64,000 bases of DNA from Ignavibacteriota bacterium. Lineage in GTDB: Bacteria; Bacteroidota; Ignavibacteria; UBA10030. The notes under the pieces were generated by a model. The model was not told the origin of the DNA and did not search any database. It saw only the letters and a list, made by a program, of their open reading frames with translations. The translations under genes and the position numbers were made by a program. This document shows, piece after piece, positions 4,046-59,944 of the stretch (position 1 is its first letter; each line of letters opens with the position of its first letter). The DNA is taken from NCBI GenBank assembly GCA_963701295.1, contig OY969585.1, positions 2,880,895-2,944,894 on the forward strand. Reading direction: 5' to 3'.

Positions 4046-4834
4046 TTATAATGAGTATTGATCCGGTTTTCGCCCTTTAAGCATGTGATTGTATTCATTG
4101 ATCTGCTTTTTATCGGCAAGAGCTAAATCTATATCGGCAACAGAAATGCCAGGTTCTCTTTCCCCAAGCCTACAAAGAATTTCACCGTTTGGCGCCACGA
4201 TCTCGCTTGCCCCAATGAATTTCAAATCAACACCACCTCAATTTTCCTCTCCCACCCGATCAGCTGTGGCAGTAAATACTTTATTTTCCAAAGCACGTGT
4301 GACCATGCTATCTGGGCAGTTTGGAAGAACGAGATTTGAAGGGTGAGCAATGAGCTGCGCTCCCTTCAGTGCAAGTGATCTCGCACTTTCGGGATAGAGC
4401 CAATCGAAACAAATCATCATCCCAATTTTTCCAAATGGCAAATCGAAGACAGAGAAACCAAGATTCCCAGACGCAAATAAAATATTTTCTCGATAAAATA
4501 AATGCACTTTTCGGTACACACCGATGAAACCTTCAGGGCCAATAAGAGACGAGGAATTATATATCGCGTCAGCTTTCTCTGCAAATCCATATGCAATATA
4601 GCACATTTGTTTTTTTGTGAATTCGCAAAGCATTCTACAAGTCATTCCATCTGCTTCCTCCGCCAATGTAGCCGATTCTTTTTGGTCAATAAAATTATAT
4701 CCCGTATTAAAAAGTTCTGGAAGCACATAAAGATCAGCTTTAACTGTTTCCATCAAATCCAAAGCATCTTGAATATTCTTTTTGACTTCACCAAATATCG
4801 GATTTGTTTGAACAACCGCTACGTGCACCTTCAT
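4046..4834 (-). pseudogene. Carbon-nitrogen hydrolase (nitrilase superfamily) interrupted by an in-frame TGA
   Basis: Catalytic E/K/C motifs are present (VLPELF, YRKVHLF, GMMICFDWLYPE). The 198-aa ORF ends ...ADRVGEEN followed by TGA at 4238-4240. The same frame then continues for 63 more family-typical residues (GGVDLKFIGASEIVAPNGEILCRLGEREPGISVADID...KPDQYSL) to a TAA at 4046-4048. Confidence 0.7.
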
Positions 4835-35331: not shown

Positions 35332-38300
35332 CTACCGAACCTTTGCAAGTTTCTGGATGACTTCTGTGCCCGATTTATTGCTCTTAGCAATAACTTTATA
35401 GAAATATATTCCATTGGCTATATTATCTCCGTCATGATCCCTGCCATTCCAGTACACTCGATAATATGCATTAGCCTGAGGAGGCACCTGGATATCCTGG
35501 ATAAGGCGTCCAGCGATCGTATAGATCTTTATCTTTATTTCATCGGCATAGTCCGTGAGGATGAATGTAAAATATGTTTCCGACGCAAAGGGATTGGGAT
35601 AATTAAATACATCGAGCAACTTGAGGTTTGTCTCGACTCGAAACTGGATTTGCGTAGCTACCGAATCGGAATAATTTCCAGAAGCATCCATCACTCGTAC
35701 CGACAACGTGTGGTCCCCAGTTGCAAGAGTTGGATGGTACGTAACAGAGGCTTTTGCATTTCCGCTTTGCCCGCTTTGCGATATGAAGAGACTGTCCGGC
35801 ATAGGGCCAAGAGCTACCCTCCGTCCATCCAAGGCGAGATACACCGAAGAAGGATCAGAAATTGGCAATGGGCTGTTATCATAAATTGCTATTTTAATAG
35901 TTGGGCTGGGCAAAACATAATCGCCATTGTAAATGCGCTGTCCGTCGAATGTGATAGCAAATGTGGGACGCGTTGTATCGGTTTGAACATAAAACGAAAC
36001 AGAATAATAATTATTGATAGTATATATTTCTGGAATTGATTGTTGGGGGTCGATCGACAGTATTTCTGTGTTGCTGCCGGCGCGTCCGGTCGTTGCAAGA
36101 GAATACGTTACCGTAGTAAATGAATCAGCAGGGACAACAGGAATGATAACCGTATCCTTTTGACGGATACCGTTATTCATCAATGTAAAGACCACTTTCA
36201 CGCTGTCGGCAGGTTGCTCGCCTGCATTGTAAATTTTTGCTGTTATCCCTAAGGATTTCCCTTCCATCAATGTATCGGAAGTTATCGAAACACATTGATA
36301 ATTGATGGCAAGTTCCGGAGGAGGTTTCAGTAAAACATTCCAATTTTTTAAGAGAGGCGTTTCACCCGAAGCATTCGCAGTAAATTTTCCTAAAAGTTGT
36401 AATGTCCGATATTTCTTTGCACTAAAAGATGCAAGAGTTAACGTACTGCTCGTATCGTTTGTCACAAGCGTATCCACTGAACCTGTAAGCGTTGTCCCAA
36501 GAACATACATACCAAGATTACTTCCTGCGGGTGTTGTCTTGGTAATTGCAGCTTGTTTCCATTGAGAAGAAGGGCCAAAAGATGGGCTGAGCACATAACC
36601 AGATAGAGCTGGGCGAATGAAAGTTGTATCAAGCTGAACTCGCAATGAATCGGATCCTATATACCATCCTTCCAATGCCGTACCTACTGGATCGCCTTTT
36701 CTGCCAAGTAACGCCCATGATGCGCGCCAGCCGGTAGTGTAATCCGTTAATTTATCGATATAAGCGCTTCCAAATTCTTTGATAGCATTTGCTGCAGCAG
36801 GTGTCGGTGAGCTTGATCCTGGAATAAGAACGCCATTAAAGGCATCGTCAATCACAACCATTGCCACTAAACTTCCATTAGGCATTGCTTCAAGAAATTT
36901 TATCAATTTTGTCGAACTTGTTGAATCTCCGTAAGTATCAAAGGACTGTTGTTGAATAGCATGATAATCCATCGTATCTAATTGGACAATTGTAATGCCA
37001 CGATTGAAAGTGCTGCCAAGTAAGTTTATTCCATTTACTTTCACCGCTCCATAATCTATGGTATTTCGTCCAGATGAAACAATTTCAATCGAATACGTTG
37101 AAACTAACAGATGCACACCTGTTGAATCATGAAAACAATGAGAATAAGAATTCGTTGTCCATTCTGATGGTACGGTCTGCGTCCACCGAGTCAAAGAATC
37201 TGATGACGGAACAAATGAGCCGGATGTAGGCGAAAGAGAACCGGAAGTCTTCCAGTAATATCGTTTTACTGCTATATCGGCAGGAGTAAAGGATGTTACC
37301 ACCTGTCCTATCGGAGCTGTATAGGAAGATGCTGTCGAGAACGAATCGCTGGTATCGATCATAATTGTTACTGCATTCGTATCGCTCGGTTTTTTTACCG
37401 GATTGAGAAGAATGAACTTTTTCGGCGGACAATTCAATCCGGGAACAGGATATGCAATTCTATATACCGCCGTTTGTACTACGACAGAATATTCGCAGGA
37501 ATTGTCGGAATAATTCGACTCCGAAACCGTACGAGCCGGGTTCAATTGTATGACAAAGGTATGTTCTCCCGGCAAGTTCTTCACGACGTATGAAAGATGA
37601 ATTGTGTCGGCATACAACGGAACCGGCAAGGCAAATATCGTATCGGAACTCGTCGTGAGATATGTATGTGTGACTTTTACTTTGAAGGTATCGGTTGGCA
37701 CAGCCCCCAAATTGTGATATGGAATCGTCAGAGAAATCACATCATTATCGTCCGACGGAAAGCTGGGTGAAGAAGTTATTAGACTGCTGGAAATAACCAG
37801 ATTTGGCAATGACGGAATAGCCAACCGAACAGCAGGATCGCCGATCAATGTATTGGTCAGCATCAACTGTCTTCCCATCGCAGAGTTATTCCATCCATTT
37901 TGATTCAAGGTAAGAATTTTCCCTAAAAGATGATCTTTTCCAATGGTATGCGTGGAATCTGCCATGACTTCTTCAAAGAAGTATTCCGGCAGAGTGGTAG
38001 CGATGGATTCAAATCCCAAGGAAGAATTCCCGATATATCCAATCGCCGAGCTATTACTGCCGACAACAAACTGTTCGCTAAATGAACTGATATTCGGCTC
38101 CGCAAACTTCCCCGTCGAACATCCGAAATCGGAAATGAACGGGAAACGTCCGACTGTATTTGCTAAATCCGTTACCTTATTGATATCATTGTCCCAAGTT
38201 TCAGTCCCGCTATGTCCAATATAAGTAATCATCAACGCACTGCTGTCAATAGCATTTGCAATTTGTGTCGTTGTGTATGGGCCAAAGCTGGAAACCGGAT

Positions 38301-55620: not shown

Positions 55621-55830
55621 GACAGAAAGTAAAGGATGAGAAGACGATAAACAGTGAATAGTGAAAGGTAAAGAGTTAAAATTGAATAGTGAATAGTAAA
55701 GAGTGAAGGGTTAAGAGGAAAGAGTGATGAGAGTTCGTAGTGCGTAGTTAACAGAGTAAAACAACGAAGAGTAAACAGTAAATGGTGATAAGTGATAGGT
55801 GAGATGTGAATTGTGAAGAGATACTCAACA
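55621..55830. repeat. Long purine-rich 7-bp-periodic array (~30 units) immediately downstream of the wbaP-like gene
   Basis: ...agtgaat agtgaaa ggtaaag agttaaa attgaat agtgaat agtaaag agtgaag ggttaag... The 99-aa minus-strand ORF at 55608-55907 is its low-complexity translation. Confidence 0.7.
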
Positions 55831-57270
55831 CGCACCTTTCCCGAAGAGAACAACGGGGATGGTTGCAAAGATAATCTCCAGATCGAAAATGAGGGATTGA
55901 TTCTCAATGTAATAGAGATCGAGCCAGATCATGTCATGAAATCCGAGAGCGCTTCTTCCTGATATCTGCCACAATCCGGTAATTCCCGGTTTTACTTTTT
56001 CACGAACCTTAATGGTGTTCCAATAATCTTTCGACTCTTTGAGTTTTTCTAAATCGAAAACAGGCAAGGGTCTCGGACCGACAATACTCATTTCTCCTCT
56101 GATGACATTGATCAGCTGCGGTAGTTCGTCAATACTGAGTTTTCGGATAATCTTGCCGACCTTTGTCATGCGCGGGTCATTCTTAATTTTAAAAAGCGCT
56201 CCGTTCGATTCATTTTTTTCAAACAAGGATTCTTTGAGCGCATCCGCGTCTTTCACCATACTGCGAAATTTATAAAAGTAAAACATTTCACCGCCGCGAA
56301 TTGCCGCACGATGCTGCTTAAAAAATATCGGCATCCCTGACTCTATCAATATTGCCGCTGCCGTAACAAGAAGTATCGGACTGAGAAGAATCAATGCAGT
56401 GACAGCAAAGACAATATCAAACAACCGCTTGAGCACATATTTAGCGGTGTCAATGCGTTTTCGTTCCTGGGAGTAGATAGTAATCCCTGCCATATCGTAC
56501 ACACGTGACAACGACATGAGAGAACCGGAATTCTCCGACAGTACTTTAAGTTTTATCTGTTTCTTTTGGCATATTTTCAGAATACCAGCATACCCGTTTG
56601 TCATTGTCTCAATGGAAGGAACAAAGACCCTGTCAATTTCAAATTTCTCAACGAGATGTTGAAATTCGGATAATGGATACGTTGGGATAAGAGATCCGTT
56701 TATTCTTATATGCCGGGGAGTTCTCTGAGGTTGTTGATGAACAACCATGCCTTGAATGACATATCCCAGCTCGGGGAATTTCTTAAACCGCCGTACAACA
56801 TTCATACCTTCCTGATCGTATCCTGCAAGGAGAACATGATGATTTCCATACCCCCGCTGCTGCATAGAACGAACAAAGATATTTAAAAGCACTCTGCCAA
56901 GAACGAAGAGTACGGGCAGGAGAAGAAAAAAAATAATTGTGAACCTTCTTGGAAAATCGCTGTATTGAAAGAGAAAAAGAACCGAAAAAAGAATGAGCAC
57001 AGAATAGAGATATGCCTTACTCGCTAAAAAATAGAGACGCTTGGTATTGCTGTGCAATGTAACCCGATACACTCCGATGATCAGCGCTGAAAAGATCATC
57101 GACAATCCAAGAAATGCGCTGAATTGAAGAAACACGGTTGTGGAATAATAGGATAGATTGGGAAAAAATCCCCGTACGATATAAGCAAGAATCGCGCTTG
57201 TTACAAGAGCGAGAGTATCCGTAAGAAGAGCAATGAAAATTACTATGGTTCGCCAGTTGCGTTTCAGCAT
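55825..57270 (-). CDS. Polyprenyl-phosphate hexose-1-phosphate transferase (WbaP/WcaJ-type priming sugar transferase)
   Basis: N-terminal transmembrane block. The C-terminus reads LKRLFDIVFA...PIFFKQHR...DELPQLINVIRGEMSIVGPRP. Confidence 0.85.
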   Translation of the reverse strand: MLKRNWRTIVIFIALLTDTLALVTSAILAYIVRGFFPNLSYYSTTVFLQFSAFLGLSMIFSALIIGVYRVTLHSNTKRLYFLASKAYLYSVLILFSVLFLFQYSDFPRRFTIIFFLLLPVLFVLGRVLLNIFVRSMQQRGYGNHHVLLAGYDQEGMNVVRRFKKFPELGYVIQGMVVHQQPQRTPRHIRINGSLIPTYPLSEFQHLVEKFEIDRVFVPSIETMTNGYAGILKICQKKQIKLKVLSENSGSLMSLSRVYDMAGITIYSQERKRIDTAKYVLKRLFDIVFAVTALILLSPILLVTAAAILIESGMPIFFKQHRAAIRGGEMFYFYKFRSMVKDADALKESLFEKNESNGALFKIKNDPRMTKVGKIIRKLSIDELPQLINVIRGEMSIVGPRPLPVFDLEKLKESKDYWNTIKVREKVKPGITGLWQISGRSALGFHDMIWLDLYYIENQSLIFDLEIIFATIPVVLFGKGAC

Positions 57271-57532
57271 GTATAATTGGTTTTTCTATTCAATGATCCC
57301 CTTGCCTCCGAGGAAATATGCACTATTCCTTATATAAATTTGGAATAATTATACCAGAGATGCAAGAGAGAACTGTTCTCCCAGACCAGAATGTGCGCTG
57401 AATCAACTTAAAACTAAGCAGAAGCCATACTGGGTGCTGTCGGGACTTATTTGCCCGCTTGACGAGCCCTTCGCAGTCTGATAACCAGCCTTATCGCGGG
57501 GGGGCGCTGTATTTTTTGTCATCAGATTATGC

Positions 57533-57972
57533 CGACATTGCGAATGACTGCAAGGAGCGCGACAGTCTTACACCCGTCATTGCGAATGTTTTCCAATGAA
57601 GCAATCTCTCTTTTCCCTATGGTATCAGATTGCTTCACCGCTTTCAGCGGTTCGCAATGACAATATGAAAGTCATTGCAAACGACTTCTAGGAGCACGGC
57701 AATCCCTCTTTTCCTCTTTCTCCGTCATTGCGAACAGTTTCATCGTGAAGCAATCTCTCCTTTTCTCAACGTTATCAGATTGCCTCAGTCGTTTCACTCC
57801 TTCGCAATGACATAATAGGACGGTCAGTAGACTACGTGTCATTGTGAGCGACCGTAAAGAGTGCGGCAGTCTCTCTCATTCAGTCATTGCGATCCCGACT
57901 TGTCGGGAGAAGCAATCTCGTTTTTTCCCTTAGTAAGTAGGTTTCTTCGTCTTTCGGGATCTTCGCAATGAC
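57533..57972. repeat. Array A of structured palindromic repeat modules (GTCATTGCGA / TCGCAATGAC half-sites with nested hairpins)
   Basis: Modules at 57577-57660 and 57724-57811, plus partial units. Details are in the findings. Confidence 0.75.
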
Positions 57973-57980
57973 TTGGCTCT

Positions 57981-58298
57981 TTATTCTAATTCAAGAGGAA
58001 GTATTTCTCCATCTTGATACAAATCTTTCCATTCGGGATTCACATTATCAATAAGATCAAGTTTCTTCTGTCTTGAACCTGCTTTGATTTGTTTCTCGCG
58101 TGAAATGGCATCATAAGCAGTTTCAAATATTTCATAATACACGAGTTTGGTAATATTGTACCGACTTGTAAATCCTTTTATCTGTTTCTCTTTGTGTTTC
58201 CATACTCTTCGTGCAAGATCATTTGTCATGCCGGTATACAGTACAGTATTGTTCTTATTGGTCATTATGTATGCAAAGTATTGTCGTTCTTCGTACAT
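57981..58298 (-). CDS. Small GIY-YIG nuclease-family protein
   Basis: 105 aa. FAYIMTNKNNTVLYTGMTNDLARRVWKHK is a GIY-YIG motif variant (YIM...LYTG). Typical small stand-alone form. Confidence 0.8.
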   Translation of the reverse strand: MYEERQYFAYIMTNKNNTVLYTGMTNDLARRVWKHKEKQIKGFTSRYNITKLVYYEIFETAYDAISREKQIKAGSRQKKLDLIDNVNPEWKDLYQDGEILPLELE

Positions 58299-58304
58299 AA
58301 GTTA

Positions 58305-58745
58305 TGTCGTCATTGCACTCTCACACGTCATTGCGAACGTAGTGAAGCAATCCTTCTTCTATTCAGTCACTGCGAACATTTTCATCGTGAAGCAATCTCT
58401 CCTTTTCTCGACGTTATCAGATTGCTTCGTCACCTGCCCCTTCGGGGCTTCGTTCCTCGCAATGACAATATGAAAGTCATTGCGAGTGACTGCAAGAAGC
58501 GCGACAGTCTTACACCCGTCATTGCGAACGCAGTGAAGCAATCCTTCTTCTATTCAGTCATTGCGAACAGTTTCCTCGTGAAGCAATCTCTCCTTTTCTC
58601 AACGTTATCAGATTGCTTCACCGCTTTCAGCGGTTCGCAATGACATAATAGGATGGTCAGCAGACTACGTGTCATTGCGAGTCCCAACTAAGCGGGACGA
58701 AGCAATCCCGTTTTTTCTTTCTTAAGAGAATAGCGTCGCTGTTTC
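58305..58745. repeat. Array B of the same structured palindromic repeat modules
   Basis: Modules at 58366-58466 and 58557-58642, plus partial units. A 40-bp sub-module (GTCATTGCGAACGYAGTGAAGCAATCCTTCTTCTATTCA) occurs twice. Confidence 0.75.
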
Positions 58746-58807
58746 ACTCATCGCGTTGATTTGGCGCTTTATTTGAACGGATACACACTGGACAATTACA
58801 ACAAACA

Positions 58808-59944
58808 TCAGGAGGCAACTCCAGATGCCATCTTTTCTTTTTCCCCTGAAACCATTTTACAAAATAACTTTTCGTACTGATTAGTGATCTTTTCCCAAGT
58901 ATATTTTTCTTCAATTCTTTTTTTTGCTTTTGCACGGAAAGCCTTCACAAGGGATTCATCAGAATCCATGTGATGGATAAGCCGAGTTAATTCGTTTGGT
59001 TCCTTTTTAAAATATACGCCATGCTCTTCTCCATCGAGCACTTCCCGGCTAAAGACAGTATCCAACGCAAGCACACAACAGCCGCTCGCAAGTGCCATTA
59101 GAAGAGTCGGATTAGTTCCGCCAAATTCATGTCCATGGATATATACATAAGAATTGCAATACAATTCACGCAGAACCTCCGCATCCCGTACATATCCGGT
59201 AAATATTATTCTTAGATCCTTTGTCTGCCTAATAGATTCTGCGTAAGCATCTTTATAGGGAACATCCCCTACAATAACAAGTTTCCGCTTTGTCTTAGTT
59301 TGTTCAAAACCTCTGACAATATCGGCAGCGTTATTGTCCGGTATTAATCTGCCTACAACAAGATAATATTCATCGGGAGATAAATTATATTTCTGAAGCA
59401 GTTCAGGTTTTTGGCTTGTTGAAATATGTGCGCCGTATGCAATAACCACGCTCTCTGCACTAAATTCCCTCCTATAGATCTCAGCCATGCTCTCTGAATC
59501 TGAAACAACAACATTAAATAACTTTGTAGCAAGTTTGGATGCTGTGTAGAAGTACTTAGCGCCCAATCCTTTCCATTTAGGACGCAGCCATTCTAAGCCA
59601 TCGACATTAATAGCGGTTTTCTGTCTAAAGAGTTTTGTCAGTAAACCAAACGGTCCATTGGCAGAGTTTACATAGAATACAACATCATTCCCTCTGCAAC
59701 AGACATCAAGTGTGGAAAGGAGTGAATTAGTAAATTGGCTGAGGGTTTTTGATTTAATTGAAGGAATATATCGCAATTGCACACCATCGACAATTTTTGG
59801 ATAACTCCCAAATAGCCCACGATGACAATAAACTGTTACAATATGCCCTCGTGCTGTAAGTCTCGGAGCTAACTCAGCTACAAATGTCTCATAACCGCTA
59901 TAAACATAAGGATAACCACGTGTACCTATGATTGAGATGTTCAT
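58808..59944 (-). CDS. Glycosyltransferase family 4 (DUF1972-type N-terminus plus glycos_transf_1)
   Basis: MNISIIGTRGYPYVYSGYETF... N-terminus. C-terminal GT-B fold EFGGTNPTLLMALASGCCVLALD. Confidence 0.75.
   Translation of the reverse strand: MNISIIGTRGYPYVYSGYETFVAELAPRLTARGHIVTVYCHRGLFGSYPKIVDGVQLRYIPSIKSKTLSQFTNSLLSTLDVCCRGNDVVFYVNSANGPFGLLTKLFRQKTAINVDGLEWLRPKWKGLGAKYFYTASKLATKLFNVVVSDSESMAEIYRREFSAESVVIAYGAHISTSQKPELLQKYNLSPDEYYLVVGRLIPDNNAADIVRGFEQTKTKRKLVIVGDVPYKDAYAESIRQTKDLRIIFTGYVRDAEVLRELYCNSYVYIHGHEFGGTNPTLLMALASGCCVLALDTVFSREVLDGEEHGVYFKKEPNELTRLIHHMDSDESLVKAFRAKAKKRIEEKYTWEKITNQYEKLFCKMVSGEKEKMASGVAS

Follow-up and report, generated by a model that had tools for sequence, protein, structure and literature searches.

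The window analysed here is a 64-kb stretch of contig OY969585.1 from an Ignavibacteriota bacterium, and near its right end a small gene for a nuclease of the GIY-YIG type is embedded in a dense block of palindromic repeats (57534-58707). A preliminary description of the same DNA had placed a GIY-YIG gene of 105 aa in the gap between two repeat arrays within a glycan-gene setting, and this arrangement was found again: the open reading frame (ORF) at 57981-58298 matches PF01541, and a WbaP-like gene and a GT4 gene lie on either side. We consider it very probable that the locus belongs to the Ssn system described by Chenal et al. (2025, Nat Commun 16:2388, PMC11893778), in which the gene for a tiny single-domain GIY-YIG endonuclease lies amid arrays of its cognate hairpin repeat, the Ssn-related motif (SRM).

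The basic repeated unit of the block is a half-module of about 26-47 nt, written A-x-B, in which box A (GTCATTGCGA) and box B (GAAGCAATC) enclose a variable segment x, rather than a module of 90 bp. A relaxed scan of 57534-58707 gave 13 full hairpin units GTCATTGCGA-x-GAAGCAATC, with x of 7-28 nt, and 4 variants in which box B is degenerate; the plus strand has about 12 of these units and the minus strand 5. Nine units precede position 57973 and nine are found from 58309 on, one of the latter being a partial box A. With at most one mismatch, box A has 17 sites in 57534-58680, and all 12 of its exact copies in the window are inside the block; the total for the whole window is 25 sites against 5.4 expected, a number reached in 0 of 100 shuffles. 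For box B, 0.8 exact sites were expected and 11 were found, all of them within 57598-58707. No exact copy of the unit was found in the window outside the block, and the sole unit-like match beyond it (35356-35394, minus strand, two mismatches in each box) fits chance, as shuffles average 1.6 such matches.

Because the half-module A-x-B is the unit, a 90-bp module consists of two inverted units around a short spacer, which we call a doublet. The four modules reported before were all recovered at nearly the same positions (57576-57661, 57724-57811, 58366-58466, and 58557-58644), together with a fifth, degenerate one (57883-57972). The joints between modules, of the form TCGCAATGAC-AATATGAAA-GTCATTGC, were likewise located at 57652-57678 and 58457-58483, and the side hairpins are ACCGCT-TTC-AGCGGT (twice) and GCCCC-TTC-GGGGC. 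The flanking arrays are homologous to each other in direct orientation (57721-57848 and 58554-58681, 89% identity), and the repeated sub-module proved to be 51 nt long (57536-57586, copied at 58478-58528 in direct orientation with 96% identity). The arrays themselves give spurious ORFs of 43-149 aa at 58147-58643 (plus strand) and at 57459-57842 and 58359-58687 (both strands); their translations include VIANAVKQS and HCERSEAI, and they could be miscalled as genes.

PF01541 spans residues 7-79 of the window protein, and no other domain is present. BLASTP against the 94-aa SsnA ortholog of Neisseria gonorrhoeae gave an ungapped alignment of 91 aa with 47% identity (E 1e-30), compared with the cut-off of E < 1e-10 used for Ssn homology in PMC11893778. 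Residues Y10, Y21, and E68 align with the catalytic Y6, Y17, and E64 of SsnA, and no aligned relative departs from Y10, Y21, R31, H35, or E68. A match to the N. gonorrhoeae chromosome was also obtained by tblastn in PLSDB (E 2e-20); the ortholog (L458:1498-1779, 94 aa) has Y6, Y17, and E64, and the repeat known as NTS follows directly after its stop codon. Records NZ_CP119140.1 and NZ_CP119142.1 of this species (about 2.17 Mb), labelled as plasmids, are evidently chromosomes and almost unannotated (12 features in NZ_CP119140.1). In total, 4276 protein relatives of 92-108 aa were found at E < 1e-5, the nearest named ones being from metagenome-assembled genomes of Bacteroidota, Ignavibacteriales, and Melioribacteraceae, and many with 70-75% identity from Nostoc/Tolypothrix, Melioribacteraceae, KSB1, Poribacteria, and Campylobacterota; no protein homologue was found in phage records. 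The closest solved structure by sequence is PDB 1ZG2 (BH0048), at E 5e-6. A GIY-YIG homing endonuclease of the I-TevI or Seg type was considered and rejected, as the protein has no C-terminal DNA-binding domain and scored 17 bits for TIGR01453 in NCBIfam against a cut-off of 56 bits.

The published system gives a close model for this pair of gene and repeat. The SsnA protein of N. meningitidis, with 94 aa and a single GIY-YIG domain (CDD cd10448), binds the NTS hairpin CGTCATTCCCGCGMAVGCGGGAATCYRG as single-stranded DNA (ssDNA) only and on one strand only, and cuts a few nucleotides upstream of it; duplex DNA and RNA are left untouched, and RNA is not bound (PMC11893778). The mutants Y6A, Y17A, and E64A keep binding and lose cutting, the C right after the palindrome being most important for binding and the three nucleotides before the palindrome for cutting (PMC11893778). 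Ssn homologues across phyla are flanked by SRM, with SRM nearby for 71% and on both sides for 42%, and in Neisseria the SsnA/NTS pair limits transformation by NTS-bearing DNA, while the role outside Neisseria was stated by the authors to be not known (PMC11893778). The authors also noted that NTS-ssnA-NTS resembles an insertion sequence, and compared it with IS200/IS605 and with repetitive extragenic palindromes (REP) and bacterial interspersed mosaic elements (BIME) (PMC11893778). The statement in the preliminary description that no described system of this kind was known thus has to be given up, since the locus matches this one.

The unit of the window and the NTS consensus CGTCATTCCCGCGMAVGCGGGAATCYRG have CGTCATT...AATC(YRG) in common, and the conserved GTC on the 5' side of the stem and C on the 3' side are the positions critical for cutting and binding by SsnA (PMC11893778). 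The unit is an oriented hairpin of the kind that defines SRM, of 20-50 nt with non-palindromic GTC and C flanks. Further likeness to SsnA/NTS is found in the length of the single-domain protein (about 94 aa) with aligned catalytic Tyr, Tyr, and Glu, in a gene placed between inverted oriented hairpin repeats that start with CGTCATT and end with AATC(YRG), in solo copies that are dispersed and mostly intergenic, and in a repeat sequence that varies with the enzyme clade. The difference lies in the stem, which is ATTGC/GCAAT with an internal loop and a variable apical mini-hairpin having a GNA loop in the window, and a continuous ATTCCCGC/GCGGGAAT in NTS. Eight IMG/VR loci with an exact NTS match encode relatives 38-49% identical to the window protein, and at locus L371 the order is NTS, 13 nt, ATG...TGA, and CTGGATT...inverted NTS, with an encoded protein 39% identical to that of the window and the same architecture as the gene-bearing loci of the ATTGC type.

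The co-localisation of the motif with GIY-YIG genes, which the preliminary description had named as a check, was evident in other genomes. Among 80 metagenomic loci with relatives 58-72% identical, 59 extend for 200 nt or more beyond the gene in both directions, and boxes were sought within 600 nt of it: they were present on both sides in 56 and on at least one side in all 59, and their density was 4.4 per kb close to the gene as against 0.33 per kb farther off. Tolypothrix (L001) and a Melioribacteraceae genome (L009) have the same boxes on either side of the gene. In the commonest layout (24 of 83 loci), A-x-B is followed after 5-25 nt by ATG...stop and then by B'-x'-A'; often the stop codon directly adjoins B', as in TGA/GATTGCTTC, so that the two inverted units enclose the ORF with an exact fit. 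The window has a second arrangement, with the gene between complete doublets, which is also that of L185, L191, L193, and L205.

A scan with A-N3-30-B, using one genome per species, gave at least 120 repeat loci, with matches in Bradyrhizobium, Sphingomonas, Pedobacter, Flavobacterium, Nostoc, Microcoleus, Chloroflexi, Patescibacteria, Zixibacteria, Planctomycetota, and Helicobacter rodentium, among others. Since a relative of the gene lies within about 8 kb at only 3 of 120 loci among the matches listed, most copies of the repeat are dispersed solo elements. The median solo doublet is 88 bp long, the palindrome of solo doublets extends one base further (C/GTCATT...AATGAC/G), and repeat sites are poor in long open frames (50%, against 86% in the background). 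At least 120 IMG/VR contigs also contain the motif. The repeat is nearly identical in sequence across many phyla, which appears to be a new observation.

When folded as ssDNA, the modules form three stems, namely an outer stem A:A', an inner stem B:B', and a side hairpin (-15.6 to -25.4 kcal/mol, z -3.1 to -9.5), in agreement with the three-stem fold first proposed. The counterpart of the published hairpin is a different pairing: ATTGC of box A is complementary to GCAAT of box B in the same half-module, so that the structural unit is not the 90-bp module with its A:A' and B:B' stems. The segment x usually forms a mini-hairpin of its own. In 597 units we found 338 distinct x, with a mean terminal stem of 3.15 bp against 1.72 bp in shuffles (standard deviation 0.045); stem arms of 3 bp or more came in 92 different sequences. 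The stem is thus kept while its sequence changes, as had been supposed for the third hairpin from a few copies. The loops of x on the strand reading GTCATT are mostly GAA, GTA, GCA, and GGA, and the commonest x is GCGAAGC, which we take to be the well-known and very stable DNA mini-hairpin. In many gene-bearing modules (e.g., L200, L202, and L178) x and x' are each self-complementary and not complementary to each other, and for this reason one hairpin per unit is favoured over a single long hairpin.

Compensatory changes across clades are found in the basal stem as well, which is ATTGC/GCAAT in the window type, ATTCT/AGAAT on a Planktothrix plasmid with a gene 61% identical, ATGCC/GGCAT in L214, ATCCCAGC/GCTGGGA in L215 and L216, ATTCCCGC/GCGGGAA in L217, and ATTCCCGC/GCGGGAAT in NTS, and the type of repeat tracks the clade of the protein. 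In the protein, the region of residues 73-79 reads IKAGSRQKK in relatives of the ATTGC type and IKKW(N/R)RAWK in those of the NTS type. This clade-specific segment may determine repeat specificity. A different small palindromic element (...GCCCGTCGAAGACGGGCGTGAACGCCC...) is nested in the variable arm of some alphaproteobacterial units (x' of L038, L046, and L054), and stands alone at L283:2320-2370.

Several results weigh against assigning the locus to the Ssn/SRM kind. The published SRM pattern, HGTCWYN(0-2)YYVSBRHN(0-5)WNVSBRGN(0-2)RNCYNB, is found nowhere in the window and in 0 of 372 units of the ATTGC type, and cleavage has been demonstrated for only four homologues, from Neisseria and Wolbachia (PMC11893778). 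Within the 64 kb, copies of the motif are confined to the surroundings of the gene, and several of its plus-strand units (x = ACAGTTTCMTCGT) lack an apical hairpin and may serve poorly as substrates. Minimal single units are weakly stable (z about -0.6 to -0.7), and the nearest-neighbour DNA model prefers the doublet hairpin; such energy models do not contain the special stability of GNA mini-hairpins. The pattern fails because TTGCGA stands where two pyrimidines are required, and it does match the repeats of L215 and L216. In view of this failure, SRM membership of the repeat rests on the alignment with NTS and on homology of the gene, and we class the locus with the Ssn/SRM kind, its repeat class being outside the operational definition of the authors. 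That the ATTGC-type class is missed by the published pattern appears to be new. In the main text of PMC11893778 there is no mention of an ATTGC-type variant, of cyanobacteria, or of Bacteroidota; no later Ssn papers were found in the literature, and a literature search on GIY-YIG proteins with palindromic or terminal inverted repeats gave nothing relevant, the motif string being found only in primers.

If the window protein acts as its characterised relatives do, the following course of events would be expected. The unit is CGTCATTGCGA-x-GAAGCAATC(YRG); in ssDNA, ATTGC would pair with GCAAT, leaving a small purine-rich internal loop, and x would stand above it as a mini-hairpin capped by GNA. 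Like the homologous enzymes of Neisseria and Wolbachia, the nuclease would bind this hairpin on one strand only, reading the stem sequence, the 5' GTC, and the 3' C, and would cut the single strand a few nucleotides upstream, just 5' of CGTCATT, with no action on duplex DNA or RNA. Two inverted units make up a doublet of about 90 bp, and an ORF between such a pair gives the basic gene-bearing module. We infer both this cleavage activity of the window protein and its biological role from the described system; two roles, which do not exclude each other, seem most likely, one being that the module and its solo derivatives persist and spread selfishly, in the manner of insertion sequences, and the other the cleavage of incoming or exposed ssDNA bearing the motif. 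The latter would modulate recombination at a variable surface-polysaccharide locus.

An extension of the Ssn/SRM assignment, competing with a purely domesticated or restriction role, is that the repeat-gene-repeat unit (about 370-400 bp, 0.37-0.40 kb) is an active autonomous mini-transposon and that the solo doublets of about 90 bp are its non-autonomous derivatives, similar to miniature inverted-repeat transposable elements (MITEs). Breaks made by the 95-aa nuclease would then mobilise both through an ssDNA intermediate and let them spread across phyla. We regard this as possible and, on balance, rather unlikely. The exact fit of the ORF between inverted units in the 24 of 83 loci mentioned above speaks for it. 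So do the modules of L153, L165, and L186, which are 366-379 nt long and 77-85% identical in nucleotide sequence within unrelated flanks; homology between L153 and L165 and between L165 and L186 stops within 1-2 nt of the outer unit ends, and that between L153 and L186 runs 11 nt further on one side. That the unit of about 370 bp behaves as a discrete module in unrelated contexts appears to be new. The idea is also favoured by the dispersal of solo doublets in many phyla, with 117 of the 120 loci listed having no gene within 8 kb, by the depletion of long ORFs at repeat sites, by copies on plasmids and IMG/VR contigs, and by the settings in which relatives of the window gene occur, namely various polysaccharide-locus junctions and the interior of restriction-modification (R-M) loci. 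The protein is 58-75% identical among Cyanobacteria, Ignavibacteriota, Bacteroidota, KSB1, and Campylobacterota; this high identity across phyla together with near-identical boxes suggests horizontal spread, though strong constraint could also give such conservation.

As is the case for insertion sequences and MITEs, inverted repeats bound a discrete unit in unrelated contexts, but neither a target-site duplication nor a clean insertion polymorphism, which would also mark such elements, was detected. Duplications of 2-8 nt at 52 doublets were not above chance, and an all-against-all megablast of the collected loci gave no clean pair of filled and empty sites. To our knowledge, GIY-YIG enzymes are hydrolytic with no known strand transfer, which also counts against transposition. 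The sole polymorphism in copy number is a pair of indels of 91 and 93 nt in Tolypothrix, both of which could be explained by recombination between neighbouring repeats or by short-read collapse. There, L001:2600-3560 (GCA_000300115.1) differs from the otherwise identical contigs L002 and L003 by these indels, each consisting of one doublet and a spacer, and repeat collapse is possible because L002 and L003 are short-read assemblies. The loops of the indel doublets contain GCGATCGC, the cyanobacterial HIP1 palindrome.

The suggestion that the modules are a family of structured small RNAs was also considered, here in the wider form that they are RNA elements (terminators, stabilisers, or leaders) of the glycan operon and that the nuclease gene is incidental. 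The block does lie within a co-directional string of minus-strand genes, the doublets would fold strongly as RNA too, and a few terminator-like sites were found in the units (4 against 1.5 expected in the region). Nevertheless, this explanation is very improbable, because Rfam gave no match at E <=1 apart from one spurious long non-coding RNA match in 57000-59200 (14 bits against a gathering threshold of 55), units lie on both strands relative to the gene and in every orientation across loci, and unrelated genomic settings have the gene between the same boxes. Moreover, the GNA loops are formed on the GTCATT strand only, as in the DNA hairpin recognised by SsnA, which neither binds RNA nor acts on it (PMC11893778). 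Still harder to maintain is that the repeats are classical REP or REPIN (doublets of REP) served elsewhere by an HUH transposase (the REP-associated tyrosine transposase, RAYT) and that the GIY-YIG gene merely landed there, since this would account for the unit, the inverted doublet, and the flanked gene, which mirror REP, REPIN, and RAYT, and for the many copies with no GIY-YIG gene nearby, but conflicts with the near-universal association of gene and repeat in the GIY-YIG clade, with the repeat type varying together with that clade, with the NTS homology, and with the binding and cutting of NTS by a GIY-YIG protein shown directly (PMC11893778). An array of the CRISPR type was rejected because of irregular spacing and inverted units, with no cas gene seen beside the block.

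The comparison with REP/RAYT in the preliminary description was right in that the organisations are parallel and nuclease and repeats form a functional pair; the arrangement with a GIY-YIG enzyme that it pointed out is the system already described in PMC11893778. Likenesses to REP, REPIN, and BIME include a short imperfect palindrome as the unit, inverted doublets giving a larger hairpin, an enzyme gene bracketed by inverted units, and copies that are mostly solo and intergenic. The enzyme is a GIY-YIG hydrolase here, whereas RAYT is an HUH (Y1) tyrosine transposase, and REPs are lineage-specific, whereas the repeat type of the window is nearly identical across many phyla. With IS200/IS605 the Ssn module shares subterminal hairpins recognised strand-specifically on ssDNA, the lack of target-site duplication, and a very small size; IS200/IS605 use an HUH covalent intermediate in place of a GIY-YIG nuclease, and transposition of the Ssn module is putative. 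UPF0213/YhbQ (1ZG2) and SLX1 have a similar stand-alone GIY-YIG fold of about 100 aa, but they are distant relatives for which no cognate repeat is known. SLX1 is structure-specific and requires a partner protein.

With the assignment to Ssn/SRM, a previously unannotated 1.2-kb repeat block in a polysaccharide locus can be named as an Ssn/SRM module, and the ATTGC-type repeat, which litters the intergenic DNA of many phyla and yields spurious ORFs there, becomes recognisable. Because the SRM pattern misses this large and very conserved class, the published association figures of 71% and 42% are probably underestimates. A new pair of enzyme and site is available for the ssDNA-cutting toolbox proposed in PMC11893778, and the discrete module, its solo derivatives, and the conservation across phyla make the insertion-sequence-like hypothesis of the same authors directly testable in the ATTGC-type clade. 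If the module were mobile, it would be the smallest known autonomous mobile element of prokaryotes and the first transposon-like element in prokaryotes to rely on a GIY-YIG enzyme.

The features of the block and its two neighbouring genes are listed in Table 1.

Table 1. Genes and repeat units at the right end of the window (positions in the 64-kb window).
Feature	Position	Strand	Remark
Bac_transf/WbaP-like priming transferase	55825-57270	-	
Variant unit (GACATTGCGA ... GACAGTCTT), degenerate box B, box A with 1 mismatch	57534-57569	+	96% copy of 58478-58528
Unit A-x-B, x = ATGTTTTCCAAT; left arm of doublet 57576-57661	57576-57606	+	doublet fold -23.7 kcal/mol, z -7.8
Unit with apical hairpin ACCGCT-GAA-AGCGGT; right arm of doublet 57576-57661	57628-57661	-	near-identical to 58611-58644
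Variant unit (GTCATTGCAA ... GGCAATCC)	57671-57705	+	in family 83% identical to 58457-58509
Unit; left arm of doublet 57724-57811	57724-57755	+	doublet fold -15.7 kcal/mol, z -4.6
Unit, box B GAGGCAATC with 1 mismatch; right arm of doublet 57724-57811	57778-57811	-	
Variant unit (GTCATTGTGA ... GGCAGTCTC)	57838-57873	+	box A with 1 mismatch
Unit with side hairpin TCCCGAC-TT-GTCGGGA; left arm of degenerate doublet abutting 3' end of gene	57883-57917	+	doublet fold -16.2 kcal/mol, z -3.8
Degenerate unit, box B GAAGAAACC with 2 mismatches; 8 nt from stop codon of gene	57940-57972	-	
ssn homologue, single-domain GIY-YIG nuclease, 105 aa (94 aa from M12)	57981-58298	-	Pfam PF01541, E 6e-16
Partial box A GTCATTGCAC, remnant beside start codon	58309-58318	+	
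Minimal unit CGTCATTGCGA-ACGTAGT-GAAGCAATCC; x a mini-hairpin with GTA loop	58327-58352	+	aligns with NTS consensus CGTCATT...AATC
Unit, box A GTCACTGCGA with 1 mismatch; left arm of doublet 58366-58466	58366-58397	+	doublet fold -15.6 kcal/mol, z -3.1
Unit, long x containing GCCCC-GAA-GGGGC; right arm of doublet 58366-58466	58420-58466	-	
Variant unit (GTCATTGCGAGTGAC ... GACAGTCTT)	58476-58511	+	copy of 57534-57569, 96%
Minimal unit, x = ACGCAGT with GCA loop	58518-58543	+	
Unit; left arm of doublet 58557-58644	58557-58588	+	doublet fold -24.5 (plus) and -25.4 kcal/mol (minus); z -9.5 and -8.8
Unit with apical hairpin ACCGCT-GAA-AGCGGT; right arm of doublet 58557-58644	58611-58644	-	ATTGC/GCAAT and apical stem; single-unit fold -9.0 kcal/mol, z -3.7
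Unit with apical stem GTCCC...GGGAC; last recognisable in right array	58671-58707	+	fold -6.8 kcal/mol, z -1.8
GT4 glycosyltransferase	58808-59944	-	

The co-directional string on the minus strand consists of the glycosyltransferase gene, ssn, wbaP, and ugd (UDP-glucose dehydrogenase). Promoter-like sites in this region are at chance level. In the related loci L210 and L211 the gene is located at different junctions of polysaccharide loci; compared with L210, nucleotide identity is 87% for ssn, 84% for ugd, and 68% for wbaP, and the other neighbours cannot be aligned. L210, the closest relative locus, also has a solo doublet between two GT4 genes (4424-4511), and as it sits apart from ssn, the repeats are scattered within the polysaccharide cluster.

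Other relatives are found beside defence genes. On the 1.26-Mb ENA contig_44924 (L212:6001-7066), two ssn paralogues and repeats lie between hsdS and hsdM of a type I R-M system. On the Planktothrix agardhii plasmid NZ_LR882964.1 (L459:1498-1782), ssn is located between an R-M enzyme of the MmeI type and drmA of DISARM; this relative (61% identity) is flanked at 1190-1460 and 1830-2050 by the unit GTCATTCTGAG-TGAAAC-GAAGAATC, and truncated copies of the unit form tandem runs there (TGTCATTCTGAGT... and ...CATTCAGGATGACAAT).

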